This document shows positions 20,049 to 40,960 of a DNA stretch of 64,000 nucleotides, piece by piece. The stretch comes from Orbicella franksi (Eukaryota). Under the pieces are notes generated by a model. It saw only the letters and a program-made list of their open reading frames with translations, ran no database searches and was not told the origin of the DNA. Both the position numbers and the translations under genes were made by a program. The stretch is from the NCBI GenBank assembly GCA_964199315.1, contig OZ116712.1, forward strand, positions 18,972,001 through 19,036,000, read 5' to 3'. Numbering within the stretch: position 1 is the stretch's first letter; each line of letters opens with the position of its first letter.

Positions 20049-20287
20049 AGTAGTATAGGGGAGCGGTTTGAGACCCAACCAATCAGAGCGCGTTATTTGG
20101 GACACGTGACGCGTCTGGACCAATCAGCGTGCAGGATTTTCGGCTCAGGTCAGCGGTTGCACTAATGCTTTTTAGCGAGGTCTGGGGCGAGCTCGGTCAA
20201 AAGGGGACCGCGCGGGGTTGGACGCCAGGACGTGAGGGGCTGGGGACCGGAAGTGACGACAGACCACGTGATCCGTTTTCAAATTTT
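20049..20287 (+). repeat. Left terminal inverted repeat (239 bp)
   Basis: Reverse complement of 42839-43077 with a single mismatch (ggggACCggaag vs ggggAGCggaag). Contains two CCAATCAG, two CACGTG and a CCGGAAGTG motif. Confidence 0.97.
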
Positions 20288-20291
20288 TTAT

Positions 20292-23200
20292 TTACAATTC
20301 TAGTAAATGATTGACATTATCCATGTCGGTATTGTCGATGTGGGCTCGGGTGTATCCGTAAGGATACGAGAGGAAAGTGTCGGGATCCACGACGCGTTTG
20401 TCGAAGACGACTTTGTATCGTTTGGTTTCTTCGACCGTTTCTAATGTTTTGGTTTGAACATTGCGTTTAATCTTGTGTGGATTGTGTACGCTGATTTCCC
20501 GTGGTTCTTCGCGGGGTTCGGTGACTTCCTGGATGACGTTTTCTTTTAACAGGTCAAAGTTCAATTGGGCTTGCCCACGTGTGTTGAGGGTGAAACCGCG
20601 TACCTTGCATTCGACTTTACCGTCGTTGGTTCGGTAACCGTAATTCTTGGGGCCAGCGGCCGCAAACTCCACGATGTGAGTACCTGGTTTCAATTCGCTG
20701 GTGAATTGACCGAGATGATCGCCTAAGGGTGGCATGGGTTGCCCTTCTCGATGCGAGAAGATGATGGAATCCGTGTCGAAGTACAGGACTTGTTGGGGTT
20801 GGAGTCGACTGAGTCCTTCTCGGTAGAGTTTGAGTCTGGCCCAGCAGGTGGTGAAGCAGGCCACGAAAATGTTGATGTTGACTTGAACGGCTTCTTCGTC
20901 TTGAACGTGTTTGTACACCAATTCGATCATCTCATCGTTCATGACACGAAGGGTTTGAATTTCTTGACTGTCATCAATCAGGAGGGTGTGAAGCCTGGCG
21001 TGGGACGAAATGGCTTCGACTTGACTCTTGTTCCCTTGTTGCCCGTACTTGCCCCAGAAGCTGTTGAGCATCATTTTGGCCAGAGACCGCCGACCGGGAT
21101 TTTTTTGAATTTGGTCGACCTCGAGTTGAATGCCTTCTTTGGCCAGGTAGTCGTCGAGGTACTGCTGACGTTTGGTCGCATCGTCACCCACCCAATCGGG
21201 CCAGCCGCTGGCTTCTTGCTTGATCTTGAGAAAGGTGTTCACGTAGGAAGAGAACAAGTCGTTGGAATTGCGTGGGAAGTGCCAAATTTCGTAAACGTAT
21301 TGGATAATGTACCCTTGATGAAGGGCTTCTTGCAATTCTGGGGTGGGCCACGTACCCACCAGGCATCGCTCTTGCTCGTTGTGGACGCAGCGATGACTGC
21401 GTTCGGTCAACGGTTTGGGTTGCTCGGTTTCCATGCACGTTCTGCACAGTGGAAAGGTGAGTTTACCCCCACTGCGGTGGGGTAAGACGGGATGATACAA
21501 CCCAAAGGGTGGTAGGATCTTGCATTTGACCAGACCAAAGTAACTGGAGATGTCGGTGCCTTCGGGTTGACTGATGATGGCAGGATGACCCACGGGGTAG
21601 GGACAGTTTTTGTTGGTCCAGGGGTAGAGGGAGGTGAAATCCAGGTACTGCACCGTTTCTCCCTGTTCCACTTGATGGTAAAGTTTGATGGCATTGGTGC
21701 GACCGCCGTAGAACGCGTCTCTGGGTTTGAGTCTGGGGACCAGGTCGAAAGATTTGACCAGGCTCCGCAGGTATTCATCCTCTTGTTTGAGTTGGTTCCA
21801 TTCGCATTGCCACATGACCACGACATGGTAGCCCGCGGCCAAGAGACTCGCTTCTTTGAGTTGAGTGGCTTCGTAAACGTCGCGCATGGTCTGATCGCAC
21901 ATTTTGTGACGCGTGCGGTCGCGGTCCGGGTAACACTTGGGACACCCGTGCCAGAAGCAACCGTGAAATTCATACACGGTACGAGTGACTTCATCGTACC
22001 CGTCCACGAAGAAGGTTTTGTCTCCGCGTAGGATCACGTGTTCCCCTCCGTTAAGGGCGTGTCGAATGTGGCGATCGGGTTGTCGGTTCATGTAGGTCAA
22101 CCATTCCAGGGACGCGAGGGAATGCAGTTTGCCTTGCCTATGCCATCCACTGATGGGTTCCGAAGCGAGGGTGCGTTCTGGCATGTGTTTGGTGCGGTAG
22201 AAGAGATTGCAGGCGGAGGCGATGGTGAGACAGCGTTGGAGAGGATTGAAGCCGCTGATGGCTTCGAATTCTTGGCAGAACACTTCGCAGGCCCCTTTGA
22301 GGAGCAGTACGTCGGATTCGCAGTAGGCCACGAGTTCAGCTTGGAAATCGAAGATCAAGTCGGGCTCGGCGAGTTGTTGAGCATACCAGCGTTCGAACTC
22401 TTGGGCGCGTTCAGTGGACATGCCTTGGGGGTCGTAATGGTCTTTGTCGGGTAGAGGTCCCACGTAATCCTGATGGTCGGGGGTGTTGAAGAAATGGGGG
22501 AAGAACCCTTTCTTTTGTTCAACCAGTCCGAAGGCTTTGGGAAAATTGGCCAGTGGCATTTGAAAGAAGCAGAGAGAATCTTTGAAAACAATGTCTCCTG
22601 CATTGATGGACAAAGACATAATCTTGGCGCCGTTGACCACTTGTTCGGGCACCACGTATTGTTGGTAGAGTTCATTCAGTATCAAGTAAGAATCGAACCC
22701 TTGGGAATTGTGGGCTAGGACGGTGAGGGTACAATCCTGCGCCAAAGCTCTCAGCCAATCCAGGAAATCTCGAATGCAGGTGGTGCCTTCAAAGTGAAAG
22801 AGTTCCTGGCAGTTGGAGGTGGCGGCGCACACTAGGTTGGGGACGTGGACACCCGTGTCTTGCATGGTTTCGCTGTCCCAGTAGACGAAGAGATGGTCTT
22901 TGGTCTGTACGCTCTGCGAACCGTCCGCTTTGCGTTTTCTGGATTTCAGTAATTTGCGCTTTTCTTCTAACTTGGTGGGATTCTGAATGAAGCATTGGTG
23001 TTGGTAGAGATTGTGATACTCCTTGCAGGAGGGACATTCGGCGGTGCCGCACACGTGACGCGTTTCCATTTCGCGAGGTCGGAGTAATCTGTTGCACCGA
23101 GGACACTTGCGTAGGGAACTGCAGACATTTTTAATTTTTTTGGCGGCATTGGCTTTGGTGCCGTCCATCTTGGAGTAAGTGTGATGATTAGACAAGCACT

Positions 23201-24302
23201 GTTCTCCGAAGAAGGCGCGGTGACAACGAGGGCAGGTGTGTGTGGTGTCGCTGGCGCGACGATAATCTTCACACTGGGTTTGACAGCAGGCGGGACATTT
23301 CTTACCGCGGCAGGGGTGATGATGGATGTCATCGGTCTGGTAGCTTTTCTCGCACTCGATGCAAAAGTTATTTTGTCCTATGAAGGCGGAAATGGAATTG
23401 CAACCGTGGTAATGGTCACCCACTTTGATGAGGATGACTCGTTTCTCACGTGGTGGACCTTTGAAAATGATTTGATAATTATGATCCAGGGAAAGCACCA
23501 CGATCTGATAATCGGTGAGATGGCGTTGGAAGGTGTGGAGTTCGGTGATGCCGCAAGGTCCTTCGGGGACACCCGCAGCTTGATGGAGTGCCTTGGCCTT
23601 TCTGGCTTGAGCGGGTTTACCTCGTCGTAGGTTGACGTAGTGGGGATGTCGACTGCCTAGGTCGCAGTAGGCTTGCATGGTGACCAGGGCCCTTGCACAA
23701 CAGAGTTCATCGTCATTGTTGATTTGGATGACGCACTTTTTGAGATCAAGTAGCTTGTCGAGGGCTAAGCTGGCTTTGCGAAGCCGCTGTTTCCCGCTAC
23801 CTCGTCCGGGATCTCGGATATGTGAAATGTGTAACGAGAAGGTGTCATCCAATCGGAACTGTTCGTTGGAGTTTAACATCTTGGAAATTTGTTGCATGAT
23901 TTCTTGGGCTCTGAGATCATTATCCATCCATTCTCGGACACGCATGCGAGCTGAGTGATAAGAGTGTCTCAATCGGTTGGAATTGATGTTGATGAGAAAG
24001 TGATCGTTGCGATCGACTTCGGGATCTTGGATGATTTGGTCTCGTATGGCGCGTTGGAGGGCTCGTTCGATTTGACGCGGTAAGATTTGTCGTTGGTTGG
24101 TGGAGAGAGGAGCAGCACCACCGCGTTGCATTAACCGTCCCACGTAATTTCGGTGTCGGACGCCTAAATGGCGAACGCGTCGGTCCAAGTGAGGCGTTAA
24201 GAGAAAATCAAAGCCTTGTTCAATGTCATCCAAATGTTGGGCTAAGAGGGCGTTGTCTTCTTCATCGTCCAGGTCGAAATCGTCTCTCGGGAAGCGAAAC
24301 AT
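20292..24302 (-). CDS. polB: Protein-primed family B DNA polymerase (1336 aa) with Vsr-like nuclease insert
   Basis: Exonuclease motifs (YWDSET, AHNSQGFD, YCESD), polymerase motifs (DFTSLYP, KMMLNSFWGK, YFDTDS), and FVDGYD..VYEFHGCFWHGCPKC (Vsr-like, known in a Polinton group). Confidence 0.97.
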   Translation of the reverse strand: MFRFPRDDFDLDDEEDNALLAQHLDDIEQGFDFLLTPHLDRRVRHLGVRHRNYVGRLMQRGGAAPLSTNQRQILPRQIERALQRAIRDQIIQDPEVDRNDHFLININSNRLRHSYHSARMRVREWMDNDLRAQEIMQQISKMLNSNEQFRLDDTFSLHISHIRDPGRGSGKQRLRKASLALDKLLDLKKCVIQINNDDELCCARALVTMQAYCDLGSRHPHYVNLRRGKPAQARKAKALHQAAGVPEGPCGITELHTFQRHLTDYQIVVLSLDHNYQIIFKGPPREKRVILIKVGDHYHGCNSISAFIGQNNFCIECEKSYQTDDIHHHPCRGKKCPACCQTQCEDYRRASDTTHTCPRCHRAFFGEQCLSNHHTYSKMDGTKANAAKKIKNVCSSLRKCPRCNRLLRPREMETRHVCGTAECPSCKEYHNLYQHQCFIQNPTKLEEKRKLLKSRKRKADGSQSVQTKDHLFVYWDSETMQDTGVHVPNLVCAATSNCQELFHFEGTTCIRDFLDWLRALAQDCTLTVLAHNSQGFDSYLILNELYQQYVVPEQVVNGAKIMSLSINAGDIVFKDSLCFFQMPLANFPKAFGLVEQKKGFFPHFFNTPDHQDYVGPLPDKDHYDPQGMSTERAQEFERWYAQQLAEPDLIFDFQAELVAYCESDVLLLKGACEVFCQEFEAISGFNPLQRCLTIASACNLFYRTKHMPERTLASEPISGWHRQGKLHSLASLEWLTYMNRQPDRHIRHALNGGEHVILRGDKTFFVDGYDEVTRTVYEFHGCFWHGCPKCYPDRDRTRHKMCDQTMRDVYEATQLKEASLLAAGYHVVVMWQCEWNQLKQEDEYLRSLVKSFDLVPRLKPRDAFYGGRTNAIKLYHQVEQGETVQYLDFTSLYPWTNKNCPYPVGHPAIISQPEGTDISSYFGLVKCKILPPFGLYHPVLPHRSGGKLTFPLCRTCMETEQPKPLTERSHRCVHNEQERCLVGTWPTPELQEALHQGYIIQYVYEIWHFPRNSNDLFSSYVNTFLKIKQEASGWPDWVGDDATKRQQYLDDYLAKEGIQLEVDQIQKNPGRRSLAKMMLNSFWGKYGQQGNKSQVEAISSHARLHTLLIDDSQEIQTLRVMNDEMIELVYKHVQDEEAVQVNINIFVACFTTCWARLKLYREGLSRLQPQQVLYFDTDSIIFSHREGQPMPPLGDHLGQFTSELKPGTHIVEFAAAGPKNYGYRTNDGKVECKVRGFTLNTRGQAQLNFDLLKENVIQEVTEPREEPREISVHNPHKIKRNVQTKTLETVEETKRYKVVFDKRVVDPDTFLSYPYGYTRAHIDNTDMDNVNHLLEL

Positions 24303-24393
24303 GGTGAGACTGATGGGAGGAGCAAAGTCACATTGGTTTTAATGGTGTGAGTCCACCAATAGTAAAAAAGTACTTTTTCAACACGTGAAAAAT

Positions 24394-24465
24394 TGCCCCG
24401 ACCAGGAATCGAACCTGAGTCTTCGCGGCCACAACGCGACGTCTTCACCACTAGACCATCGAAGC
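24394..24465 (-). tRNA. tRNA-His: tRNA-His (GTG), Maverick-encoded
   Basis: GCTTCGA TG GTCT AGTGGTGA AGAC G TCGCG TTGTGGC CGCGA AGAC TCAGG TTCGATT CCTGG TCGGGGC A. All four stems pair (a few G-U), A- and B-boxes are intact, and TTTTT follows 1 nt downstream. Confidence 0.92.
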
Positions 24466-24530
24466 ATGAGCGGTAGGGAACCACGTTTTATAGAGTAGTG
24501 GTTCCCGCTTTTTTTAATGACGTAGGAGTG

Positions 24531-24565
24531 GGGGGGTACCCCCCATCCCCCCTCTGGTGACGTCA
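24531..24565 (-). promoter_or_regulatory. 35-bp promoter-core motif, copy 1 (CRE + G6ATG6TAC6)
   Basis: Reverse complement is identical to 41909-41943. TATAAAA lies on both sides (24486-24492 minus, about 24590 plus). Confidence 0.7.
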
Positions 24566-24627
24566 CGTCACGTGTCTTGATTCCGCGTGTATAAAAATGG
24601 GACGCCTTGGCGGTGGTGATTCGACTG

Positions 24628-24741
24628 ATGAAGCTGGAAGTGAGTATACCATTGGCGAAGCTTACTTTGGAGGTGGACCTATTTGCGCTGACTGTGATTG
24701 GTATTGTGGTGATTGAAGTTTGTCACCATTTAAAGAAATAG
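24628..24741 (+). CDS. Small hydrophobic protein 1 (37 aa, MKLEV family)
   Basis: MKLEVSIPLAKLTLEVDLFALTVIGIVVIEVCHHLKK. Paralogous to the next ORF and downstream of a TATA box. Confidence 0.6.
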   Translation: MKLEVSIPLAKLTLEVDLFALTVIGIVVIEVCHHLKK

Positions 24742-24750
24742 GTGAGTTTG

Positions 24751-24909
24751 ATGAAGCTTGAAGTGACTTTGTCATTTGTGAAGATTACTTTGGAGTTGGA
24801 TTTGGAATTGCTGTTGCTGATTTTTGCGATTGTTTTCATCGGAGTGGTTTTGATTCATACAAGTGGAGTGAATTGCAAAAATGAATACCTTGAATCGATG
24901 CCGTCGTAA
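24751..24909 (+). CDS. Small hydrophobic protein 2 (52 aa, MKLEV family)
   Basis: MKLEVTLSFVKITLELDLELLLLIFAIVFIGVVLIHTSG..., with a single predicted TM helix. Confidence 0.6.
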   Translation: MKLEVTLSFVKITLELDLELLLLIFAIVFIGVVLIHTSGVNCKNEYLESMPS

Positions 24910-24910
24910 G

Positions 24911-25177
24911 ATGACTACTTTGACTCAGTGGGTGAATGAGTGGAAGGAGCGTGAGAAAGAAAATAGCGCGAGTTTGTTATACAATGACTTGCGTAATCTG
25001 TCTCGTTTCATTGGTGCGGTGCTACGTGACATTGACTGTTTGTTCTCGGAGGAGCAGTTAGGCTTTTTGAGGGAGATGCATTTGAAAGAGTTGCGAATGA
25101 ATGTGAACCGTGCTCTTAAAGGCTATAAACATTTGTTTTTTAGCTATGACCAGTCATTGGGATTATTTACCACCTGA
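24911..25177 (+). CDS. Hypothetical protein (88 aa)
   Basis: ATG 1 nt after the previous stop, tightly packed in the plus-strand block. Confidence 0.6.
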   Translation: MTTLTQWVNEWKEREKENSASLLYNDLRNLSRFIGAVLRDIDCLFSEEQLGFLREMHLKELRMNVNRALKGYKHLFFSYDQSLGLFTT

Positions 25178-25478
25178 AATTCAAACGTACATTATTGATT
25201 TGAAGCTGCGACAGGAGCGATTGGATGTCTTGACGTCAGCACGAAAGGGATTGTGCGAAGAAATGAAATTGTACCATTATTTGAAAGAGAAGTGGAGAAT
25301 AGGTCATTTGAGATGTGAGGCTCACTATTGTCGTTTATGTAAGGCTTTTCATTCGAGAGTGTACGGACAATTTCGCGAATATAGGGTGTTGTTAGGTTAC
25401 TCTTTGAAACAAGCGGCAAGTAACGTGACGTCAGCCAGACGTAAGATGTTGAATGAACCTGCTTTTGTTGTGTTGTAG
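25146..25478 (+). CDS. F-box-like paralogue 1 (110 aa)
   Basis: MTSHWDYLPPEIQTYIIDLKLRQE. Clear paralogy with the next two ORFs. Confidence 0.75.
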   Translation: MTSHWDYLPPEIQTYIIDLKLRQERLDVLTSARKGLCEEMKLYHYLKEKWRIGHLRCEAHYCRLCKAFHSRVYGQFREYRVLLGYSLKQAASNVTSARRKMLNEPAFVVL

Positions 25479-25479
25479 A

Positions 25480-25839
25480 ATGACAAGTTATTGGGATTAT
25501 TTACCACCAGAAATTCAAGCGTACATTCTCGATTTGAGACTGCGACAGGAACGAATGGACAGCGTGTCGAACCAACAAAAAGAGTTGTGTGAAATGATTC
25601 GAATGTATCATCGCGTCAAACGTGATTGGGGTCTGGGTCACGTGCGATGTCAACCTTTTCGGTGTTTTATTTGTAATGAAGTGAATTGGTTGAACGCTAA
25701 GACTTTATCACTCACAGACTTTGTCTATCACGAAAAAGTGTATGGGTATTATAACGGTCGAACGGTCTTAATGGGTAATTGTTTGCAACAAGTGTACATG
25801 CAAGAAGTCAAACAAAATTTATCCCTCTTTTTTCCTTAG
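25480..25839 (+). CDS. F-box-like paralogue 2 (119 aa)
   Basis: MTSYWDYLPPEIQAYILDLRLRQE..LCE..W.LGHVRC..C..C. Confidence 0.75.
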   Translation: MTSYWDYLPPEIQAYILDLRLRQERMDSVSNQQKELCEMIRMYHRVKRDWGLGHVRCQPFRCFICNEVNWLNAKTLSLTDFVYHEKVYGYYNGRTVLMGNCLQQVYMQEVKQNLSLFFP

Positions 25840-25842
25840 ACA

Positions 25843-26208
25843 ATGGATATCAAGACCAAAGTGAAATTAAGTCAAGAAGTTGAAAGTTACTGGGATTTGT
25901 TACCCTGGCACATTGTCTCTAAAATTATGAACTTGAAAATCAGACAAGAGTATTTGGACGAGATTGAGAAAGAAAAAAGAAAGAAATTGTGTGAGGAGAT
26001 TAGGAAGTTTTATGAATTGAAAGTAAGATGGGCGATAGGCTCTGTTATGTGTAAACCTTCAATGATGACATGTGGATGCATGGATGCTAAATGGTATGGT
26101 AATTATGTGGATTTACAAGGTAAACGGAGAAGGGCCTTTTTGGCGTTTAATTTGAATCAGGCCTTTGAACGTTCTGATCATATCAAATCATTTTTATTTC
26201 ATAGTTGA
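25843..26208 (+). CDS. F-box-like paralogue 3 (121 aa)
   Basis: SYWDLLPWHIVSKIMNLKIRQE..LCEEI..W.IGSVMC. Confidence 0.72.
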   Translation: MDIKTKVKLSQEVESYWDLLPWHIVSKIMNLKIRQEYLDEIEKEKRKKLCEEIRKFYELKVRWAIGSVMCKPSMMTCGCMDAKWYGNYVDLQGKRRRAFLAFNLNQAFERSDHIKSFLFHS

Positions 26209-26304
26209 TAGTTGATAGGGCGTCTTCCCACCAGGGGAATGGACACATGTCCCACTTGTAAAAAAAGGTTAAAATGGTTATTAAAATGTTTTTTGCAGAA
26301 CAAA

Positions 26305-27087
26305 ATGGCTGCCTTTAATCCTGTGGATCATTCGATCCAATGTGTAGTGTGCTCCAGTTCTGAGATGAAAGACGGTGAAAAGCTCTTCATGTTGGAATGT
26401 TGCAAAGAGGGGGTGCATAACTCCTGTCTAGCGAGACCACCCAACGGAACGCACTTGGTGTGTCCCAAATGTCGCATTGAGACCTGTGCCCATAATCAAA
26501 TCGTACAGAAGGATCACTTCACGGAGAAGGACATGGATCTCGTGGATCTGTGTTTCCTGAAACATCAAGTGGTCTCGCGCATTCCCATGACCCAACAAGA
26601 GATCCATCAACTACGCGTGGCTAGTAACGTGCCCGGGTTGAACGCCCTACGCCACGTCAGTCATCGCGTCTTTTTGACGGGTCTGGTCTTTTGGGTGCCT
26701 CTGAAGAAAAGCGTGTTCTGCGAGTGGGAGGATGTGGCGGCTCGCTTGTCCCTGGGTCTGACCTACAACAACCTCTCTGAGATGCGTTCCCGCTACGATC
26801 TGCGCGTGGAGAGGGATCAGAAAGGGGATGCCTTTCACCACTTTTTGGATCACTTGCTGGAGTGTGCCATCCAGGATGAGAAAGTGGTCGGTCGGACTTG
26901 TCTGGTCAAGACCTGTCGCTGCCCCCTGTGCCCAGAGTGTCAAGGCTTTGCCTCTATCTTTGGGAAGGAGCGTACGTCCAACATAGTGGCCCTTGCCAAC
27001 CGCAGTTATTTTTACGAGCGCGTGGAGAAAGGGATCTACAATAATTTCAGGATGATTTATAATCGTGCTCATAAGAAGAAACCATAA
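26305..27087 (+). CDS. RING-finger protein (260 aa from ATG 26305; frame open from 26212)
   Basis: CVVC-x14-CCKEGVHNSC-x11-CPKC. AATAAA follows near 27125. Confidence 0.75.
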   Translation: MAAFNPVDHSIQCVVCSSSEMKDGEKLFMLECCKEGVHNSCLARPPNGTHLVCPKCRIETCAHNQIVQKDHFTEKDMDLVDLCFLKHQVVSRIPMTQQEIHQLRVASNVPGLNALRHVSHRVFLTGLVFWVPLKKSVFCEWEDVAARLSLGLTYNNLSEMRSRYDLRVERDQKGDAFHHFLDHLLECAIQDEKVVGRTCLVKTCRCPLCPECQGFASIFGKERTSNIVALANRSYFYERVEKGIYNNFRMIYNRAHKKKP

Positions 27088-27131
27088 GTCAAAACACATG
27101 TATCTTTTAATTTCAACATGATTCAATAAAG

Positions 27132-27488
27132 TTACAGTTTCAAACGTTTCTTGGCTTGCATGATGCGTTTCACCACCCTTTCCGTCATGGTCTTCCTACC
27201 GGGTAACCTGTCAATGGCCTTGATCATCTTGGTGTCAGCCTTCCACTTGTCCTGCAGATTCTTGGCACGACTGTAATCGATGTCGTGTTGTTTGGCGAGT
27301 CGGTCCAAACGATTGATGCCAGGATCTCCTCGGGCCAGTCGTTTTTTCAGTTTGGTGCCCGGTCCCATATACTGATAGCCTGGCCAATGAAATTCGATCC
27401 CCGTCTTGCCCAACAGTTTCTGAATGTCTAAACCGTAACCGCGTTGCTTTTTGCGAGTCCTGGTCCTGTTGGCTCTAGTTCTTGCCAT
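27132..27488 (-). CDS. Parvovirus-VP1-type phospholipase A2 domain protein (PLA2X-like, 118 aa)
   Basis: Ca-loop YQYMGPG, catalytic DRLAKQHDIDY, and a basic N-terminus with QRGYG. Confidence 0.88.
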   Translation of the reverse strand: MARTRANRTRTRKKQRGYGLDIQKLLGKTGIEFHWPGYQYMGPGTKLKKRLARGDPGINRLDRLAKQHDIDYSRAKNLQDKWKADTKMIKAIDRLPGRKTMTERVVKRIMQAKKRLKL

Positions 27489-28185
27489 AGCTGAGACGTC
27501 GTTTGCTGGGGTTTTTCCACTCTTCCCAAGGCTTCAGGCGTTCGGCCGCTGTGGGTTTGCGCTTCTTAGGTTTCTTGGCGACTTTCTTGGGACTGTAACC
27601 ACCCTCGTCGTCGTCGTCTTCAATTGATTTAGGATCCAGACCGATGCTCTTTAAAAAGCCTTTCTTGGCTCCGCTCAACACGCTTTTTTTCAAACCACCC
27701 GATTTAGGCTTCTTAGCGCTGGACGTGGGTCGCGGTATGCGACTCGGTCCAGCACTGGAGGCAGCCTTTTTCACAGTCTTGGGTGTTTCGGGTAAGAGTC
27801 GACGGGGTTTGATCCCAGACGGACCCGCGGGTGTGACTACTTCTTGCTTGATCCTGGCGGGGGTTTGACCTTTAATGACTTGTTTCAATAAGTTTTCCAA
27901 TGGAGAGTCCAGGGCTTCTTCATCCGGTGCTGGACCACCCACGCCAGCCTTCGGGACACCTCCCGTACGAATACGTTTGGTCAATCGAGTCTGTTCACGC
28001 GCCAAGGGTTTGACCATCTTGACGGCAATCCCGTCAGGAATGGTGGGATTCCCCAAGATCAATTGTTTTTCTGCGGCCAATCGCCCTGCTTTGTTCAACA
28101 GGGCGCTTTGTGAAATCTGTCCTTTGTAGTAATCTTGCAAACGTTCGAATTCACTGACCGGTACCATCATGACCTCTTCCGTCAT
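27475..28185 (-). CDS. Maverick hypothetical/virion protein (236 aa)
   Basis: Long ORF in the late block. MMVPVSEFERL N-terminus, Pro/Lys-rich C-terminus. Confidence 0.7.
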   Translation of the reverse strand: MTEEVMMVPVSEFERLQDYYKGQISQSALLNKAGRLAAEKQLILGNPTIPDGIAVKMVKPLAREQTRLTKRIRTGGVPKAGVGGPAPDEEALDSPLENLLKQVIKGQTPARIKQEVVTPAGPSGIKPRRLLPETPKTVKKAASSAGPSRIPRPTSSAKKPKSGGLKKSVLSGAKKGFLKSIGLDPKSIEDDDDEGGYSPKKVAKKPKKRKPTAAERLKPWEEWKNPSKRRLSYGKN

Positions 28186-28594
28186 ACTGCAACGCGGTTT
28201 CAAAACAGTCTTGCCAGTAACTTGCTTCTTGACGGGCTTTTTCCAATTTCAATTGCAGACTCTGGACGGTCTCGTTGGGTTTGGCACAGGTCTGGCAGGG
28301 AATGATCACGTCTTCCACGTCGTCTTGGACTCGTATGCAATCGTCACACCCGTGTCCGTATTTTAAAGCCAAATATTCCTGTTCGAGAGCTCTGTATTTT
28401 CGATGCTGACGCTCTTGAACGAGTTTGAGTTGTTCTTCCCTGCGATTGGCTTCTTGTAACAATCCAATGAGCTTGGTCATGTTGTCTTTGATCTCGGTTA
28501 GTTTTCGGTTCTCGCTCACGCGTTCAGGCACCACGTCGATGCCCTGCAAGGGGTAACCCTCAGCGTCTCGACCCGACATGTTCGTAACACTCAT
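28151..28594 (-). CDS. Coiled-coil protein with two CxxC pairs (147 aa)
   Basis: Heptad-like segments flank CDDC...CQTC. Confidence 0.65.
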   Translation of the reverse strand: MSVTNMSGRDAEGYPLQGIDVVPERVSENRKLTEIKDNMTKLIGLLQEANRREEQLKLVQERQHRKYRALEQEYLALKYGHGCDDCIRVQDDVEDVIIPCQTCAKPNETVQSLQLKLEKARQEASYWQDCFETALQYDGRGHDGTGQ

Positions 28595-28883
28595 TCAAAC
28601 CTCTCCAGAAGCCACTCCCTGTTTGAGCCAACAGATGTTGACGCCTCCTCTTCAGCGAATTTCTGCGCTTCCCCACTTCGCGCAACACGTTCTTATGGCG
28701 TTGAAGTTTTCGAAGCGTCTGAGGCTCGACGGGAATTCTCTTTTTCAACAGATTCAAGACCATTTCACTGACCGCGTTGATCTGGTCGGCGTTGGCATGT
28801 TCCAACATCTCTTGACGTTTGAAACGATTGGCTTCTTGGAGAATGCTGGTCAAGAACGGGCGTTGTCGCCGTAATCGATTCAT
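28560..28883 (-). CDS. Conserved Maverick basic core-type protein (107 aa)
   Basis: INAVSEMVLNLLKKRIPV..KL..HK..LR....QTGSGFW pattern recalled from Polinton small conserved proteins. ATGA overlap with the upstream ORF. Confidence 0.7.
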   Translation of the reverse strand: MNRLRRQRPFLTSILQEANRFKRQEMLEHANADQINAVSEMVLNLLKKRIPVEPQTLRKLQRHKNVLREVGKRRNSLKRRRQHLLAQTGSGFWRGLNECYEHVGSRR

Positions 28884-29176
28884 CGTCTCTTTCTGAGTCG
28901 GTAGGAAGGGGTAAAGTCTTTTATGCCCTGAATCGACTCCACCACTTTGACACCCGCGGGAACACGGAACGGGGTCTTGCGTTTTTTCTTGACGGGTTTG
29001 AGGGTAGATTGAAAGGGTATTTTCCGAATGGCTCGTTCCAACTTGGGTCTGTGCTTTTGAACCTGTTTGTCAAAAAGCTTGGTGAACCAGTTCGCCGCCC
29101 CGAACACTTTGTCTCCACCTCGTTGCAGTATCTTGGCTCGGGAGAGCCTGGACAGCTTACCTCGGCGTCTTGTCAT
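28880..29176 (-). CDS. Basic core-type protein (98 aa)
   Basis: Arg/Lys-rich, LQRGG motif. Confidence 0.65.
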   Translation of the reverse strand: MTRRRGKLSRLSRAKILQRGGDKVFGAANWFTKLFDKQVQKHRPKLERAIRKIPFQSTLKPVKKKRKTPFRVPAGVKVVESIQGIKDFTPSYRLRKRR

Positions 29177-29198
29177 GGTTTTTGAATGGGGGTTGGAG

Positions 29199-29540
29199 TC
29201 AAGACCCCGCTTTTATCATCTTAGCCAAGGGTGTCTTGACGGCTGGGATGCGTTTCAATAAACTCAAGAGGGTGGTTCTACGATTGAAACAGATGGGTTT
29301 TTTCTTGGCTTTCTTTCTACGAGTCTTGGTGAATTTGCTCACATCTCCAAACTTGTCTTCGTACCAATGCCTCTTTTTCATTCTTCTTTTCCTATCTTCT
29401 TTGGCTGAAAGGGTGGGAGCTCTCTTGCGTTTCCTGCGCGTGGTGACAGTGGTCGGTAATTCACCGGTGTCAAGGACAGCCATTGGAGCCGGTTGAAGAG
29501 CGACTCTTCTGGCGGGTACTGCTTGTTTTTTTCGGACCAT
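29199..29540 (-). CDS. Basic protein (113 aa)
   Basis: Arg/Lys-rich ORF in the late block. Confidence 0.55.
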   Translation of the reverse strand: MVRKKQAVPARRVALQPAPMAVLDTGELPTTVTTRRKRKRAPTLSAKEDRKRRMKKRHWYEDKFGDVSKFTKTRRKKAKKKPICFNRRTTLLSLLKRIPAVKTPLAKMIKAGS

Positions 29541-29647
29541 GTTGAAAGCACTCGGTTGAGGCGTTTTTTACCAGGTTTTCCGTAGCGTTTTTCCAAATCG
29601 GCTATGACGTTGTCCAAATAGCGATGCCCTCGAAACTGAAGATCCAT
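29378..29647 (-). CDS. Hypothetical protein (89 aa)
   Basis: ATG-initiated ORF that overlaps the next ORF by 163 nt, so one of the two may be partly spurious. Confidence 0.45.
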   Translation of the reverse strand: MDLQFRGHRYLDNVIADLEKRYGKPGKKRLNRVLSTWSEKNKQYPPEESLFNRLQWLSLTPVNYRPLSPRAGNARELPPFQPKKIGKEE

Positions 29648-29690
29648 GAGGTGTCATAGGTGTGGTGACGAATGACTTGGGGTTTTTCAC

Positions 29691-30077
29691 TCATCGCTTT
29701 TTATAGAGCCAAGGTTGTTTGCGATGACGATAGCTGCTTTGAGCCGCACCGGTCAAACCCATGCGTTGGTAATCCTTACGCTTTCCCAATTTGTACCCCA
29801 TTTTGGCTGCACTGGCAAAGATGTTGCCTCCGCCTTGTCGTTTCTTTCGCTTCTTCTTGGTGACGGCTTGCAAAGCTCGTTTGGCGCCGTAGCTGGCGGC
29901 ACCGGAAGCTGCCCCTAAACCCACGGCTTTACCCAGGGCAATGCCGGCCGGCACGAGCGCAGCCAAAGGTAGGACACCGCCCTTCTGTTTCTTCTTACGA
30001 CGTCGTCTTCTCATCATGAGCGCGAGCCCAGCGGTGGTGAGCATGGACGCAGGTAGGTTACCTCCCTTCTGTTTCAT
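29691..30077 (-). CDS. Adenovirus pX/mu-like basic core protein (128 aa)
   Basis: KQKGG twice, poly-Arg, and GGVLPLAALVPAGIALG resembling adenoviral pX GGFLPALIP. Confidence 0.65.
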   Translation of the reverse strand: MKQKGGNLPASMLTTAGLALMMRRRRRKKKQKGGVLPLAALVPAGIALGKAVGLGAASGAASYGAKRALQAVTKKKRKKRQGGGNIFASAAKMGYKLGKRKDYQRMGLTGAAQSSYRHRKQPWLYKKR

Positions 30078-30093
30078 GGTGAACAATGAACCC

Positions 30094-30627
30094 TCATGGA
30101 CTTGGATCGTCTAATTTATGCTCTTTTTGGTAAGGAATGTAACGAAATTTCAGGTCATACTGTTTGACGTAGGTGTCCTTGATGGGTTGGGTCAAATCCG
30201 TGATGGTGTCGTCTATGGTTTGCAATTTCACCAGGAAGCCTTCGAACTCGTCCAAGGGAAAGCCGCGCACGTAGGTTCTCAATTCGATCAAGGTCTTTTC
30301 ATGGGCAGTGAACGCAAAACGACTCATGTCCATCTTGATGGAAAAATTCTTGAAATCGTTCCAACCCTTGACCAAGGTCCCTAAAGCGGTCAAGATGGCC
30401 ACGATGACATGTTGTTCCCAAAGCACACCGATGATCATGCTCAAGGCCATCATGAGTAAAGCCAGTCCATTGAGAAAACAGAACCACGTTTTGAAATGAT
30501 AAAACATTTGTTTCCGATACCACCATTGTCGATGATAATATTTGTACAATCCATCCAATCGCGACAAGGATTCCTCTTCCACACTGTTTCTGTAAGCCCC
30601 GTTGAGTAAACTCACATCGATGGTCAT
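30094..30627 (-). CDS. Two-transmembrane-helix protein (177 aa)
   Basis: Hydrophobic hairpin FLNGLALLMMALSMIIGVLW / VIVAILTALGTLV flanked by charged helices. Confidence 0.75.
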   Translation of the reverse strand: MTIDVSLLNGAYRNSVEEESLSRLDGLYKYYHRQWWYRKQMFYHFKTWFCFLNGLALLMMALSMIIGVLWEQHVIVAILTALGTLVKGWNDFKNFSIKMDMSRFAFTAHEKTLIELRTYVRGFPLDEFEGFLVKLQTIDDTITDLTQPIKDTYVKQYDLKFRYIPYQKEHKLDDPSP

Positions 30628-30633
30628 GGTTAG

Positions 30634-31434
30634 TCAGTTCGAAACACTGCTCGAATTGCGGCTCACTTGGGGTCTTCCTCCGTCTTTGTAGGTGGTCGTG
30701 ATGGTGTTGGTGGTGGTGATACCGGCGATACGTCGTCCTCGAGCCGTTTGTTGCTGATCGTTCAACAACATTTGCAATTGACGTTGTAAACTGTCTTGAT
30801 CCATGCGTGATCTGGGGGTGGAAACAGCACTGCTTTCATCATCGTCATCATCGTCGTCGTCATCATCATCATCATCTCCACCACCACCGCCTCCAGCACC
30901 GCCTCTACCGCCTCTACCACCTCTACCACCTCTACCACCTCCACCACCTCTACCACCTCGACCCCGTCTGGGTTGCTTGCCACCACGTCCCCGTCTGGGT
31001 TGCTTGCCACCCCTGGTAGCCGGTCTCTTGAATCCAACAGTTCCCACGGTGAACGTACGAGCCAGATACCCCCGTCCAGGCGGTGTCGGAGCTCGTCCGG
31101 GTACGTCTCGACGCGTATCCAGACCCGAAGGCCCCGCTCGGGCTGGGGGAGGACTCGCCCCAACGCCTGCGACACTCCCTGTGGGGCGGGGACTACGTCG
31201 CGGCGTACTGCTAGCCACGGGTCCTGCGGTGCCTGCGCCAGCAGGGGGTGTATTCCGTAGGGGTGACCTAGTGGTCGTACCCACGCCCGGACTCAAACTT
31301 TGAATGTACTGACTCAAAAAGTCGTCGTTGTAAGCGTAGCTCAAGTCGATGTCCTCCAGCGGTGAAAGAGGGGAAGGTAAAGCTTGAGCGATGAGACTGG
31401 GCGAGGTGCCCACGCCAGCTGGAGAGGTGCTCAT
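30634..31434 (-). CDS. Low-complexity protein with RGG repeats and poly-Asp tract (266 aa)
   Basis: S/T/P-rich, (GGKQPRRGR)x2, GGRGG repeats, about 13 Asp. ATGA overlap with the upstream ORF. Confidence 0.7.
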   Translation of the reverse strand: MSTSPAGVGTSPSLIAQALPSPLSPLEDIDLSYAYNDDFLSQYIQSLSPGVGTTTRSPLRNTPPAGAGTAGPVASSTPRRSPRPTGSVAGVGASPPPARAGPSGLDTRRDVPGRAPTPPGRGYLARTFTVGTVGFKRPATRGGKQPRRGRGGKQPRRGRGGRGGGGGRGGRGGRGGRGGAGGGGGGDDDDDDDDDDDDDESSAVSTPRSRMDQDSLQRQLQMLLNDQQQTARGRRIAGITTTNTITTTYKDGGRPQVSRNSSSVSN

Positions 31435-31682
31435 TGTAGAAGGTCGGTGTATTTCTTTTCTCGAGCCACCAATCTTCGTGCCAACAACAGTTTGTATTGA
31501 ATGTGATCGGTCAAATTCTCTTGGTTATATGCGTTTAACACGGTTTGTACCTCGCGTGTACCGCTGCACTGCAAGATTTGTCTCATGGGTTCGCACTCGA
31601 CATTGCGCTCATGCATGTAGTCCAATTGATTTTTGCAAATCGCTAGGAATCGCGGGAACCACTCGACTTCACTGCGCAGCAT
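31431..31682 (-). CDS. Hypothetical protein (83 aa)
   Basis: ATG 2 nt after the ATPase stop. Its own stop overlaps the next ATG. Confidence 0.6.
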   Translation of the reverse strand: MLRSEVEWFPRFLAICKNQLDYMHERNVECEPMRQILQCSGTREVQTVLNAYNQENLTDHIQYKLLLARRLVAREKKYTDLLQ

Positions 31683-31684
31683 CT

Positions 31685-32332
31685 TCACTTCAACTGATGC
31701 ATTCGCATGCAGCCCTCTTCTTTTAGTAGATGACTGAGAATCCGCTCATCGTCGCGGCTTTTAGGGTGTAAATCCAACAAGAGATAGCCAAACGGACGGT
31801 CGGTGACCTTTCGAAAGGTCTCTTGCACATCCTGCCATCGCGACGGAAAGGCTTGCAACAATAAATTTCGCATCCCCAGTTGATCTCGAGGGTTCTTGAA
31901 TCCCACGATGTAATGGGCATTTCTAGAGATGCTCTTGGAAAATTTACCGGGTGGAAACATGTCTTGCGATAAATAGATCACTGTGATGTTGCGATGGTGG
32001 GAATCTTTGGTGAAGAGATCCAAGACCCGTTTGTCGTTCCCTCCTTCTTCCATCAAATCGTCCATCACCAGTAAGCCGCCCTTGGGAAACCAGATGGGTA
32101 AGAGATCCGAGTCGGGAATGCCGTGCTGGAATTTCACGCCATACGCTTTCAGGGGTTTGAATCCGTCTTGCCAGGAACCGTAACAGTAATAAATGCTATT
32201 GGGTGGGGTCTCGAACAGATCGAGATTGTCCATCAATAATTGGGTGGTGAACACCGTTTTCCCCGATCCCGACGGACCCACTACCATCATGCTGGAAGGC
32301 GTGTTGAATCGAAAGGCTTGACGTCGTTCCAT
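31685..32332 (-). CDS. A32/FtsK-family DNA packaging ATPase (215 aa; upstream in-frame ATG at 32374)
   Basis: Walker A GPSGSGKT, Walker B LLVMDD, SHHRNITVIYLSQ, SRNAHY. Confidence 0.95.
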   Translation of the reverse strand: MERRQAFRFNTPSSMMVVGPSGSGKTVFTTQLLMDNLDLFETPPNSIYYCYGSWQDGFKPLKAYGVKFQHGIPDSDLLPIWFPKGGLLVMDDLMEEGGNDKRVLDLFTKDSHHRNITVIYLSQDMFPPGKFSKSISRNAHYIVGFKNPRDQLGMRNLLLQAFPSRWQDVQETFRKVTDRPFGYLLLDLHPKSRDDERILSHLLKEEGCMRMHQLK

Positions 32333-32490
32333 GGTTGAGTCCCATATGGATGAGACAAAAGGAGTGCGTTTCATATATAAACCGCATGGGTCCCTTATGG
32401 AAAAGCGTGAGGTCCGGATAGACAGGTTTATCTGTCCTGGGCGCGGGAGTTAACACGCACTTGTCTTGACACTTGACTTCACATTTTTTA

Positions 32491-33057
32491 TTACAATAAA
32501 TGTCTTACACCGCAACGAGATGTACACGTGTCTTGCTCGTAATCACATCGGCAGACTTGCTCCCAATTTAACTCTTTATGTATCAATTTTTTTAACATTT
32601 GTCCCACTTTATGATCGTTTTGTACGTAATCGTGTGGACTGAAACGACGTAGAAACGTGTTCATGTCATGTCCTTTGGATCGATCGATCAAAAACATCAA
32701 CGCGTAATCGCCGCAACTCTGACTGTACAGCGATTGCAAACTCTTGCCGTTGTGGACATTGAACTTCCAATGGTGATCCAACCACCTCTGTAAAGGTTCC
32801 GTGGTCAGGTAGGTGTCCAAGGGTAGTGCGTAACTGTCCATGATCTCGCAAACGTTATTACACGTCCATAGCGCAATCCAATGCCGACCCGGTTGGCCTT
32901 GAGGGTCCGTGTTGACAATGTAACCCACGGGTCCTTTCTTCTGGGGTTTCTCGGGTAAACGATCGCAAGGCACCGTACCGTAAAAATAGGGTTTCAAACT
33001 GGGTTGACTCCTAGCCAACACGTCCAACTGCACATTGTTCAAACTGACTTTTTCCAT
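32491..33057 (-). CDS. Adenain-like (C5) cysteine maturation protease (188 aa)
   Basis: NTDPQGQPGRHW (His), MDSYA (Asp), LQSLYSQSCG (oxyanion Gln, catalytic Cys). Confidence 0.95.
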   Translation of the reverse strand: MEKVSLNNVQLDVLARSQPSLKPYFYGTVPCDRLPEKPQKKGPVGYIVNTDPQGQPGRHWIALWTCNNVCEIMDSYALPLDTYLTTEPLQRWLDHHWKFNVHNGKSLQSLYSQSCGDYALMFLIDRSKGHDMNTFLRRFSPHDYVQNDHKVGQMLKKLIHKELNWEQVCRCDYEQDTCTSRCGVRHLL

Positions 33058-34439
33058 TACACTTGGTACACGTCGTATTGCACGGTCTTGTTGCTATTGA
33101 TCTCCAAGAGATTTTCAAATTCGGCGTAGAGGATGGCCGTGACGTTGGCACCTTGATCGGCTCCAAAGTCGAACACCAACCGCAACTCACCGCTCAGCTT
33201 GGGGTTCAACACTGGACTGTTGAGGCAACCGTTGGCGGCGTTCTCAAATACAAACAGCGTGCATCCTTTCCCTCGTCCCCAATCTTTGGCTCTCACCATG
33301 TTTCCTTTACTCTTGCACAAACTTCCCGTGGCTTGTAGAAATTGTCTATAGCCTCTCATGTCTCTGCTTCCATTGGTATGGAGCAATTCCAAGACTTCAT
33401 AGGGATAGGCTTCTCCTCTCACCAATTGTTTGATGCTGGTCAGATTAAATTGCTGGAAGGTGAAGGGATACTCATCGTCGGCCCCGTTGAAGGCTGTGGA
33501 AGCCACCAATCCCACCACCAGCATGTTGGGTAGCCGGTTCTGGAACGGATTGGTGATTTCATAGTGTAACTCGTTTTGCGTGATGTTGTAGGTCCGGATC
33601 TCGCTTCTGACCGTGGGATAGCTTACCACATTTCTTCCACTACCCATATCATTCATCAATTCTCGGTAGACAGACGGGTTAAGTCTGACTTGGCAAAGAT
33701 ACAGTTTCACTTTGATGTCTCGTGAATCCATACGGAAGGCCACAGCACCCTCCATTTTCCAACTCCACACAGCCGGTGAATTGAAGTACATCTGAATCCC
33801 AATCTGCACATTGGGTATCAAGAGTTTGCTGAGGTGAAACACTTCAATGTGGGGAACGAAACTGTAAACGCGCGTCTGACTGTCCGTGCCAGTGGCTTGG
33901 GCTCGGAGTTCACGCACCAGGTCTTGTCTATCCGGGGGTAAAGCTCTGAAATCGGCATGTGCCAGATTCAGTTGAGTGGCTGTCAAAGTATCGGGCACAT
34001 CGACCTGATTGAACCAGCCTTGAGGTCTCAAAATGGTGTCTCCATCGTCTCTGTCAAAATTCAGTAAGGTTTCGATGTAGGCTTTGTAATGGTAGGTGTC
34101 CGTCTGAGGACTGATGAGCGTCCCATTGAGTCGCACACTGATCTGTTTGAACAGGGAGTGGGCAATGTTGTTGACCAAAAAGGTGTTTTCGGCGGCCACG
34201 GCATCACCTCCCGCTGCTTTCTGCAATTTCCATTCCAGTTCGAAGTAACTGCGTGACAAATCGATGTAATCTTCTTGAGGATCGATCTGAAAATCGATGG
34301 GGTTGATGCCCGTGGTGAAAGGATGTACGGGTACCATCCGATAACTCGAGATACTCAGATCCGTGGGCGGCACCCGAAACAAATTCAACATGGGGTTCTT
34401 GACCCCCGCCGAACCAGGGAGAGGGACAATGTCCGTCAT
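33057..34439 (-). CDS. Major capsid protein (double jelly-roll, 460 aa)
   Basis: YIDLSRSYFEL, NNIAHSLFKQI..NG, YHYKAYIETLL and LPNMLVVGLV..FNG..PF.FQ.FNL, typical of Polinton MCP. Sits next to the protease. Confidence 0.92.
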   Translation of the reverse strand: MTDIVPLPGSAGVKNPMLNLFRVPPTDLSISSYRMVPVHPFTTGINPIDFQIDPQEDYIDLSRSYFELEWKLQKAAGGDAVAAENTFLVNNIAHSLFKQISVRLNGTLISPQTDTYHYKAYIETLLNFDRDDGDTILRPQGWFNQVDVPDTLTATQLNLAHADFRALPPDRQDLVRELRAQATGTDSQTRVYSFVPHIEVFHLSKLLIPNVQIGIQMYFNSPAVWSWKMEGAVAFRMDSRDIKVKLYLCQVRLNPSVYRELMNDMGSGRNVVSYPTVRSEIRTYNITQNELHYEITNPFQNRLPNMLVVGLVASTAFNGADDEYPFTFQQFNLTSIKQLVRGEAYPYEVLELLHTNGSRDMRGYRQFLQATGSLCKSKGNMVRAKDWGRGKGCTLFVFENAANGCLNSPVLNPKLSGELRLVFDFGADQGANVTAILYAEFENLLEINSNKTVQYDVYQV

Positions 34440-34624
34440 CGTCGTCGTTTAGGTCCTCGTCGGTGTCTTCTCTTGAGAGCGCTCCGCACCCAAGTGGGGT
34501 CTAGACCTCGTCTGCGGTGGGGTAAGAAGGTACCCCCTTTTTGTAGTCTTCTGCCTCGCGTCAACTCACTGACAATGGGTGGAATGCGTCGAACGCGTCT
34601 CGAATAAATGGGATTCATATTCAT
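34436..34624 (-). CDS. Small Arg-rich core-type protein (62 aa)
   Basis: LQKGG motif and ATGA overlaps at both ends. Confidence 0.65.
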   Translation of the reverse strand: MNMNPIYSRRVRRIPPIVSELTRGRRLQKGGTFLPHRRRGLDPTWVRSALKRRHRRGPKRRR

Positions 34625-34872
34625 TTTCCAAAAATGTCGTCCAACTTGCGTTTGGCCGCTCGGTTGATTTCGCTCAAGGCTTTGCGTTTAATGGCTCGTC
34701 TCCCGCCGGACTTCACGCCTCGAATACCACCTGCAATGTTAGGTAATCCCATGGGTCCACCCTTTTTTAAACCTTGCCATCCTTCTCGTAAACTGGATCC
34801 CGAAAAGTCTCGCAAGAAACCTCGTCCCATTTGACCGTCGGGTTTGAAACGCGTCAAAGCGCCGCCTCTCAT
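34621..34872 (-). CDS. Small basic core-type protein (83 aa)
   Basis: MRGG, QMGRG, and ATGA overlaps at both ends. Confidence 0.65.
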   Translation of the reverse strand: MRGGALTRFKPDGQMGRGFLRDFSGSSLREGWQGLKKGGPMGLPNIAGGIRGVKSGGRRAIKRKALSEINRAAKRKLDDIFGK

Positions 34873-35894
34873 TCTTGTTTGAAGTGTAGCGTGACGATGG
34901 TATTGCCTGCTCCGAATTTCGTCAATTCCCCAGTGGTCTCCGCGACTTGTGTCTCGATAATGTCGATGTAATCTTTGCGTACCGGAATATATTGAACATG
35001 GAGGGGTTCAAAATACTGGAAGCCTTTGCCTTCTCGTTGGTAATTGACTTCTCGTAACAGATCCGTGACTTGATTCCCCACCACCCCGCTGGTCCCCACA
35101 TCCGAATACACCATCAGCGAACGCGAGGTGGAGCCCGTCACGTTCTTGAACGAGGTGTTGAGGTTGATGAACCGCCAGTTAAGGAAGGTGGTCAACTTCA
35201 CTCTCTTGCCATTTCCGTGCAATTCCCAATAGGGTTCACCTGTTCTGGGGTTGATGTCAGCGGCCGCTGGCACTTTCAGTTCTTCGGTGTTCAGTTCCAT
35301 GGACAGATTGGGACCAATCTCCACATTACTACCATTCTTCTTGAACCATCCCATGTCAATACCCAGTTCCAGGTTGACATAGAATTGGGGGTAAGAATGA
35401 CCATTGTAGAGCCTCCTGTGGATATCCGTGTTATCGAAGACAAAATCGTCGCCTTCGAATCGGAAATTCAACAGATTGCTTTTCTTGGTGGTTGGATCCG
35501 AGAAGAGGTAACCCGCTCGAAGCCTCTTTTCTATCACGGTTGTGTCAAAAAAGGTCTTGACGGTCTTCATGAACTCCACTCCTGTCAGATTCGACAAATC
35601 GTCCGCGCGAAGGTGTTCGGGCTTGAAATCACCCCCATCGATATTGTGTCGATTTAGCAATTGTATGGTGTCTCTCACATACCAATACCCTTCAAACATG
35701 ACCTCGTCCCCTTGCAACAAGGGAGGGACTTGACTCTTGGGGTCTGGTAACGAGATACTGCTGAGACCCACTTTCCAATTGGCGCCTTCCATTTTCAAAG
35801 GATGAGGGAGTCGAATCTTGAAATGATTGGATTTGTTCTCGGGATACTCGGTCTTGCTACTGTGGCTCGGTAGACTCACGTAAAAATCCGTCAT
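34869..35894 (-). CDS. Minor capsid protein/penton, copy A (341 aa)
   Basis: FYVSLPS.SS..YPEN....F...L....W.VGL and LMVYSD..VGNQVTDLLREV..Y.PV....IETQV....G..F....VTLHF. Confidence 0.9.
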   Translation of the reverse strand: MTDFYVSLPSHSSKTEYPENKSNHFKIRLPHPLKMEGANWKVGLSSISLPDPKSQVPPLLQGDEVMFEGYWYVRDTIQLLNRHNIDGGDFKPEHLRADDLSNLTGVEFMKTVKTFFDTTVIEKRLRAGYLFSDPTTKKSNLLNFRFEGDDFVFDNTDIHRRLYNGHSYPQFYVNLELGIDMGWFKKNGSNVEIGPNLSMELNTEELKVPAAADINPRTGEPYWELHGNGKRVKLTTFLNWRFINLNTSFKNVTGSTSRSLMVYSDVGTSGVVGNQVTDLLREVNYQREGKGFQYFEPLHVQYIPVRKDYIDIIETQVAETTGELTKFGAGNTIVTLHFKQE

Positions 35895-38311: not shown

Positions 38312-38363
38312 GCTGACCAAAAATGATTTTTTATTTTTCACATGACTGTTCTTATACAAAAAA

Positions 38364-40938: not shown

Positions 40939-40960
40939 AAAAATTCATTCAGTTTCAAAC

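Follow-up and report, generated by a model that had tools for sequence, protein, structure and literature searches.

Three small paralogous proteins of a coral Maverick as likely F-box-like, one-helix SKP1 binders

What three adjacent small open reading frames (ORF1–3) contribute to the Maverick element that carries them is the question raised by this locus of the coral Orbicella franksi. The window—the whole 64,000-nucleotide stretch that was analysed (contig OZ116712.1 of assembly GCA_964199315.1, positions 18,972,001 to 19,036,000, forward strand)—had been given a first-pass annotation in which the three ORFs were read as a tandem trio of F-box-like viral paralogues, possibly serving as adaptors of SCF ligases. 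The coordinates of the relevant features are collected in Table 1.

Table 1. Features in and around the trio, in positions of the window.
Feature	Position	Strand	Remarks
Maverick/polinton holding the ORF1–3 trio	20049..43077	.	TIRs, AGTAGT ends, TSD
Protein-primed DNA polymerase B	20292..24302	-	PF03175, E 4e-40; transcribed away from trio
TATA box (24590) and putative leader exon	24590..24747	+	GTGAGT donors 24640, 24742; start site inferred
Hydrophobic ORF of 37 codons in leader exon	24628..24741	+	Stop ends at donor
88-aa ORF ahead of trio	24911..25177	+	Kept in 11/11 close copies; no Pfam match
ORF1, 110 aa	25146..25478	+	WDxLP motif at 25158; acceptor-like TAG ends 25143
ORF2, 119 aa	25480..25839	+	Start = second ATG (inferred); motif at 25492
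ORF3, 121 aa	25843..26208	+	Additional helix at N-terminus; motif at 25891
Predicted SKP1-binding loop and extended helix, ORF3 residues 14–39	25882..25959	+	ESMFold2 interface; conservation
Downstream ORF with C4HC3 RING/PHD-like Cys-His pattern	26305..27087	+	Pattern by eye; no Pfam match

The Maverick context that had been proposed was borne out. Terminal inverted repeats (TIRs), a 6-bp target-site duplication (TSD), AGT-repeat ends, a protein-primed polymerase (pPolB), and a retroviral-type integrase are all present. The TIRs are 239 nt long (20049–20287 and 42839–43077) and 100% complementary; the TSD (20043–20048 and 43078–43083) and the AGTAGT ends were read directly, and the end motif agrees with that given in PMC8097293. 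In a Pfam search, pPolB, the integrase (E 1e-14), and a PLA2-like domain exceeded the Pfam cut-off, and a Pox_A32 ATPase (E 5e-4) and a Peptidase_C5 protease (E 6e-3) gave weak matches below it. The candidate ORFs for the major and minor capsid proteins have no Pfam match and were picked for their length and location. Two tRNA genes, His(GTG) at 24393–24466 (-) and Met(CAT) at 38364–38436 (-), lie within the element; a tRNA is called at the His position in 10 of 11 close Maverick copies (9 GTG, 1 GTC), and tRNA-Met occurs in 2 of the 49 scanned loci of the second Maverick lineage described below. They could aid translation or act as a Pol III insulator or VA-RNA-like element. Elsewhere in the window, a 2.1-kb inverted repeat (99%) flanks 1.1 kb at 44647–49936 and adjoins a 177-nt tandem array (49928–50990), and a repeat at 6369–19674, ahead of the Maverick, recurs at 52887–57122 (88%–95% in several pieces).

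ORF1–3 are 34%–43% identical to one another, with values of 35%–43% in pairwise BLASTP (E from 1e-16 to 1e-32). The pattern W-D-x-L-P-x-[EH]-I-x3-I-x2-L has exactly three matches in the six frames of the window, at the motif positions of Table 1, and none in 30 mononucleotide shuffles of it, which upholds the description of a trio of adjacent small ORFs with a common motif. Of the two possible ATGs of ORF2, at 25453 and 25480, the second is most likely the start: it is aligned with the ORF1 start, and an acceptor-like TAG immediately precedes it. The shared downstream module described earlier also exists, but across 86 family representatives it is conserved only in part: Q, L, W-x-x-G, G-x-Y, L-G/A, and a final K are kept at 72%–99%, and the Cys of its 'LCEE' at 43%. 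No LxCxE motif was seen in ORF1–3 when the sequences were read by eye. A SOCS/Cul2-box reading was dropped because ORF1 and ORF2 leave no room for a BC box before the motif.

The trio belongs to a large family. A search of the coral's own genome with ORF1 gave at least 150 matches (150 of 277 candidates were scored), and an iterative search gave at least 229 domain matches, with 157 full-length sequences and 86 representatives below 88% identity. Among global protein clusters (50% identity), 278 match at E<=0.001; the 150 listed are all 51–243 aa long, and of the 149 examined, 93 reach the motif, 51 begin too late to contain it, and 5 are without it. None of the 10 global relatives looked up carries a usable name. 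A metagenome scan yielded 11 loci, all short, among 242 stretches, and tandem copies are found in metagenome contigs as well; a long ORF in one such locus (L117), considered as another virus, proved to be a LINE. In IMG/VR, none of 15 pattern matches was confirmed.

Some 71 more distant family places were picked by eye from the match list of the genome, and 60 of them were examined. PolB lies within the same 10 kb as a family member at 59 of these 60 loci and is 37%–52% identical to the window PolB; the distant loci are therefore taken mostly to form a second Maverick lineage, in which the family cluster is co-oriented with PolB. ORF1–3 are thus members of a family without a name whose genes accompany Maverick PolB. 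The sole member found without Maverick genes within 10 kb (L073:4704-5204) lies near a reverse-transcriptase-like element. Of 21 second-lineage frames that share the motif only, 20 place it N-terminally on an unrelated C-terminus; these (L021:4771-5067 and 19 similar frames) make up a fourth class, in which the tail is Pro-rich and the frame overlaps the next member in another frame. A further ORF with the C4HC3 RING/PHD-like pattern, at 42020–42832 (+), matches zf-RING_2 at E 0.004; in the second lineage, 46 of 60 loci have its homologue next to the family cluster.

The trio had been taken for an expansion of substrate adaptors; the family tree shows that it is not a local expansion. In a quick tree—whose careful search is unfinished and which carries a long-branch warning—sequences group by position, with seven ORF1-type rows (support 97), five ORF2-type rows (93), and seven ORF3-type rows (98); ORF1 and ORF2 types group together (12 rows, support 97), and the second-lineage classes fall outside. 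Given three position-specific clades, the trio is an old, kept cassette of a large family. A dN/dS check that had been suggested for the paralogues gave values below 1 in 25 of 25 comparisons with the window copies, ranging over 0.17–0.61: 0.17–0.61 for ORF1 (8 copies), 0.37–0.58 for ORF2 (9 copies), and 0.22–0.60 for ORF3 (8 copies), obtained by counting from pairs that are not independent. The self match, L007 as a near-duplicate, and copies in which the gene was missing, interrupted by a stop, or broken at its start were left out. By region (three values each), dN/dS is lowest at the motif, which comprises 17 codons only (0.26, 0.29, 0.11), with 0.39, 0.73, and 0.29 for the helix and 0.63, 0.48, and 0.66 for the C-terminal part. 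The family is under purifying selection, with constraint strongest at the motif.

How the three proteins would be expressed is suggested by the upstream region. In 11 of 12 window-lineage copies, splice donors lie at +50 and +148–162 from the TATA box, and a pyrimidine tract and YAG stand 1–6 nt before 29 of 33 family start codons in this lineage; the stop codon of ORF1 doubles as the acceptor-like TAG of ORF2, and that of ORF2 serves ORF3 in the same way. In a single RNA contig, from run X17, position 24741 is followed directly by 26299 across a GT..AG joint, so that donor 24742 is used and the trio skipped; this joint has a depth of 8, with 44 letters on its short side, and occurs in 1 of 8 runs. 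As it reaches the downstream RING/PHD-like ORF, the latter likely begins at 26305 and not at 26239. RNA joints into the trio's own acceptors were not seen in the 8 runs, and expression of the trio is for this reason presumed. In polyA data from organism B, 2 and 0 reads aligned. Six metatranscriptome runs cover the region evenly with contigs, but this was rejected as a sign of expression because the cover includes the spacers and may be DNA. ORF1–3 have the appearance of alternative 3′ exons that belong to a single spliced unit. Two small paralogous hydrophobic ORFs head this unit, at 24628–24741 (37 aa) and 24751–24909 (52 aa), both on the plus strand, and are possibly membrane peptides. An internal 52-nt inverted repeat (85%; 24531–24582 and 41892–41943), with a G/C palindrome and TGACGTCA in it, precedes both accessory-gene units of the Maverick and is likely a promoter element common to them.

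The second lineage presents a related arrangement. An in-frame ATG lies within 14 codons for only 11 of 169 motifs, and 121 of the 169 stand directly behind an acceptor, with another 22 six bases behind one, against a background of 331 in 10100 positions. At 48 of 60 loci, a TATA box is followed by a leader exon that stays open for about 19 codons and ends in a phase-0 donor; this leader, seen upstream of the family cluster among loci L021–L080, is acidic, and its unit is duplicated in some copies. Among 67 database relatives, five carry an acidic peptide like this leader in one frame with the motif. The acidic leader exon likely supplies the start for all second-lineage family genes. In the 14 second-lineage PolB frames shown, the conserved start comes after a pyrimidine-rich stretch whose last codon is for Gln, and this PolB may be spliced to the same leader.

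The putative unit of the trio resembles the adenovirus E3 and E4 early units, in which one promoter serves several small host-modulating ORFs through alternative 3′ splice sites; the likeness lies in the single promoter and the alternative 3′ splice sites, and homology is not claimed. Adenoviral ligase hijackers use Elongin BC/CUL5 and are not known to use SKP1.

Whether the motif is an F-box was examined by several routes. No Pfam F-box family matches any of ORF1–3 at E<=1 or any of 89 family members at E<=0.1 (PF00646/PF12937), and no F-box is among 25 of the 34 Pfam families matched by 85 members. The only Pfam family matched repeatedly is PRANC (PF09372; 20 of 89 and 40 of 85 members), and its matches fall on the motif wherever the stretch was shown; they all lie below the cut-off, with 16.6 bits for ORF2 and 14 bits for ORF1 against a curated 25.8, and a best E of 0.00023 among the 85. 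Against 29 host F-boxes (from 30 genome loci, one having been dropped as mis-cut), the family profile matched over 17–23 columns with 5%–6% probability, and a pairwise match covered 17 aligned columns (E 0.006, probability 6%). The host F-box HMM scores the trio at -0.6 to 0.8 bits and the family at a median of -0.9, versus -3.8 bits for reversed members, a slight excess that stems from roughly positions 1 to 19.

The loop and helix 1 pattern of F-boxes, hydrophobic-x-x-L-P-x-E-hydrophobic-x3-I, is present. From position 6, however, the register departs from that of F-boxes, with polar Q/K where these are hydrophobic; the family Leu stands at +12 and not at the F-box +13 (79 of 85 members versus 10 of 30 host F-boxes anchored), and the helix 2 and 3 signature D-L...V-C-x-x-W is absent from the family sequences. 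None of 90 host F-box-like matches in the genome, compared by eye, lies at a listed family position. Four of the F-box-like matches, of identical score and in 250-aa frames (G000 C1:35401729, C3:15313912, C4:7550104, and C10:21992998), represent an F-box inside another repeat. A PDB sequence search returned a single match (E 0.36), which was ignored. In the ESM Atlas, the clusters nearest to ORF3 are unnamed viral proteins (0.88–0.89), with F-box clusters at 0.76—values that serve as leads only—and P0142 gave no usable match there. Judged by sequence, the F-box likeness of the family is confined to about 17 residues, the loop and helix 1.

Two AlphaFold2 models of ORF3 (pLDDT 89.3 and 95.5) agree. 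They predict a helix at residues 3–12, a short helix at 16–19, one helix at 22–63, three strands, and a helix at 104–120; helix 1 of the motif would run unbroken for 42 residues into a small alpha/beta domain and would not fold back to form F-box helices 2 and 3. A Foldseek comparison with PDB and BFVD brought no match at E<=0.001, and VIA-align gave no match of Z>=8 and no F-box chain among the 50 rows listed, which mostly cover residues 46–121. The best structural neighbours of the C-terminal domain, with HPF/RaiA and dsRBD folds, reach Z 5.8 (rmsd 3.7, 73 aligned) and Z 5.0 (rmsd 2.9, 57 aligned), and a further row reaches Z 5.2 (rmsd 3.2, 68 aligned), at identities of 3%–16%; a best match of Z 7–8 is expected by chance, so the modelled dsRBD/HPF-like topology is within chance level. 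Nor does the lack of VIA-align and Foldseek matches make the fold new. Profile, register, and model together rule out a canonical F-box protein.

Binding to SKP1 was modelled with ESMFold2 for ORF3 alone of the trio (residues 10–121), without alignments and with SKP1 from another coral (P0046, residues 10–171). Three runs gave 0.62, 0.64, and 0.64, with at least 92% of contacts in common and a partner pLDDT of at least 57; the best of three controls gave 0.02. In calibration, 51 of 78 solved complexes came up to the mark applied, as did 2 of 108 mismatched pairs; in eukaryotes it was attained by 39 of 65 pairs without a like complex and 2 of 126 unrelated ones, host–pathogen pairs lying outside this eukaryote calibration. 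Over residues 73–162, which include all interface residues, the SKP1 used does not differ from the protein encoded by the SKP1 exons of the window's genome. Of the named single-domain matches to the exon, those that score best are Pocillopora and Stylophora proteins (92%).

In the predicted complex, ORF3 residues 14–39 face SKP1 87–91, 105–116, 124, 128–137, 147–151, 157, and 161, a surface that we take to be the F-box groove of the Skp1–Skp2 structure. L20, I24, and I28 would contact SKP1 F109, I112, N116, L124, and C128, and L31, K32, and Q35 would contact K129–K136 and T90. Interface residues are more conserved than residues 40–120 (mean entropy 1.71 versus 2.64 bits), and S15, W17, L20, P21, and Q35 are kept at 93%–95% across the family. 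L31 and Q35 are family hallmarks without an F-box counterpart, and their place in the modelled interface would account for their being conserved. At a position that is Glu in 89% of the family, ORF3 carries His; this Glu position, like the L-P-x-E residues, presumably corresponds to a CUL1 contact in SKP2.

Modelling of the kind proposed in the first-pass annotation gave a prediction of ORF3–SKP1 binding, but the pass may reflect memory, since F-box/SKP1 complexes are already solved. Of the two negatives that together were to count against the F-box reading, the lack of an F-box profile match was found and the lack of SKP1 binding was not, the prediction standing at 0.64 versus 0.02. What falls is the name F-box protein, there being no profile match and no helices 2 and 3; what survives, as a prediction, is an F-box-like SKP1 binder. 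ORF1–3 are likely F-box-like, one-helix SKP1 binders and not members of the F-box family.

Such binders have parallels. According to PMC4353913, most Skp1 contacts come from helix 1 and the preceding loop, and for cowpox CP77 helix 1 by itself is reported to suffice for Skp1 binding. Like the trio, the poxvirus ANK/F-box (PRANC) proteins, especially CP77, have a truncated F-box-like motif and are multi-copy paralogous accessory genes. They combine a C-terminal F-box with N-terminal ankyrin repeats, however, whereas the family has an N-terminal motif, no ankyrin match, a length of 110–150 aa, a ~42-residue helix 1 leading into an unnamed alpha/beta domain, and PRANC scores below the cut-off. 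Cellular F-box proteins (PF00646, PF12937) share the hydrophobic-x-x-L-P-x-E-hydrophobic start, N-terminal to a putative substrate domain, and the same SKP1 surface is predicted for the family, but the latter is without helix 2/3 sequence and differs in register after position 5. Nanovirus Clink and polerovirus P0 appear in PMC3588083 as small viral SKP1 binders without LRR/WD40 repeats; the trio is likewise small and free of such repeats, but no sequence match to them was found, LxCxE is absent, and the host is an animal. The adintovirus Oncoid genes, defined by LxCxE/CR1 Rb-binding motifs in PMC8502044, are also small, Cys-containing accessory ORFs upstream of PolB; the trio differs in having no LxCxE. 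The accessible text of PMC8502044 and of the Maverick papers PMC11131425 and PMC8097293 does not contain the term 'F-box', and a literature search, with most subscription papers outside its reach, found no report of F-box-like or SKP1-binding polinton/Maverick proteins.

The explanation that we prefer, and rate at somewhat better than an even chance, is that the N-terminal loop and helix of ORF1–3 bind host SKP1 at the F-box site and that the proteins act as SCF substrate adaptors. The loop and helix 1 would dock on the F-box-binding helices of SKP1, and helix 1 would then run on along SKP1 instead of folding back into F-box helices 2 and 3, with the near-invariant Leu31 and Gln35 providing contacts in their place. 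The long helix may hold a variable C-terminal alpha/beta domain at a distance from SKP1, and there this domain could catch a host protein (of defence, silencing, or the cell cycle) or a viral one for ubiquitylation; each paralogue may target a different protein, and all three would be produced from one early-type promoter via alternative 3′ splice sites. The adaptor role and the distinct substrates are suggested by the fixed motif joined to a variable domain, the 20 motif frames with an unrelated tail, and the RING-like neighbour genes. More tentative, and below an even chance in our estimate, is the fuller picture of an adenovirus-like spliced early unit, whose products would be SCF-hijacking adaptors with a new SKP1 mode—one helix and an invariant Gln—and exchangeable C-termini that send host defence or silencing proteins to the proteasome.

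The same SKP1 prediction would serve equally if the proteins were decoys, which bind SKP1 without delivering substrates, compete with host F-box proteins, and so damp SCF. Their small size without a known substrate-binding repeat, an extended helix that also covers SKP1 87–91, and the loss of the family's Glu from ORF3 would suit this role; yet a confidently modelled, folded C-terminal domain with invariant residues of its own is retained, and three divergent classes are kept side by side, beyond what a decoy needs, and the idea is rated as improbable. Rather unlikely, though to be taken more seriously, is that the WDxLP helix merely looks like the start of an F-box and that the proteins have another partner: each other by way of the long helix, another cullin system, or, by way of the C-terminal domain, a nucleic acid or an RNAi protein. 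The missing profile match and the differing register favour this, a 42-residue helix suits coiled coils, three co-expressed paralogues could form heteromers, and the nearest folds, HPF/RaiA and dsRBD (alpha-beta-beta-beta-alpha), would accord with it. Those folds, however, have Z values below the chance level, and the controlled SKP1 prediction passes with the family-specific Leu31 and Gln35 in the interface.

It is barely credible that the ORFs are no more than transposon frames that arose by chance or are falling into decay. Some copies do have stops or frameshifts, and RNA evidence of the trio itself is lacking; but selection in every comparison, the many global clusters, the higher pLDDT of the ORF3 models, and the absence of the pattern from the shuffles all speak against it, and the selection and family data already contradict it.

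A survey of coral Mavericks (PMC11131425) describes frequent proteins of no known function and treats what they do as a question still to be answered. The accessory genes of animal Mavericks are mostly unassigned, and a widespread family of predicted SKP1 binders would offer a direct way to study how these elements deal with their host cell. The findings support the view of Mavericks as active viruses with an early programme and suggest that there are many SKP1 binders which F-box profiles do not detect. If true, the family would be a new class of SKP1 binder that F-box profiles have missed, and an adenovirus-like SCF-hijacking unit would be the first defined host-control mechanism for animal polintoviruses.
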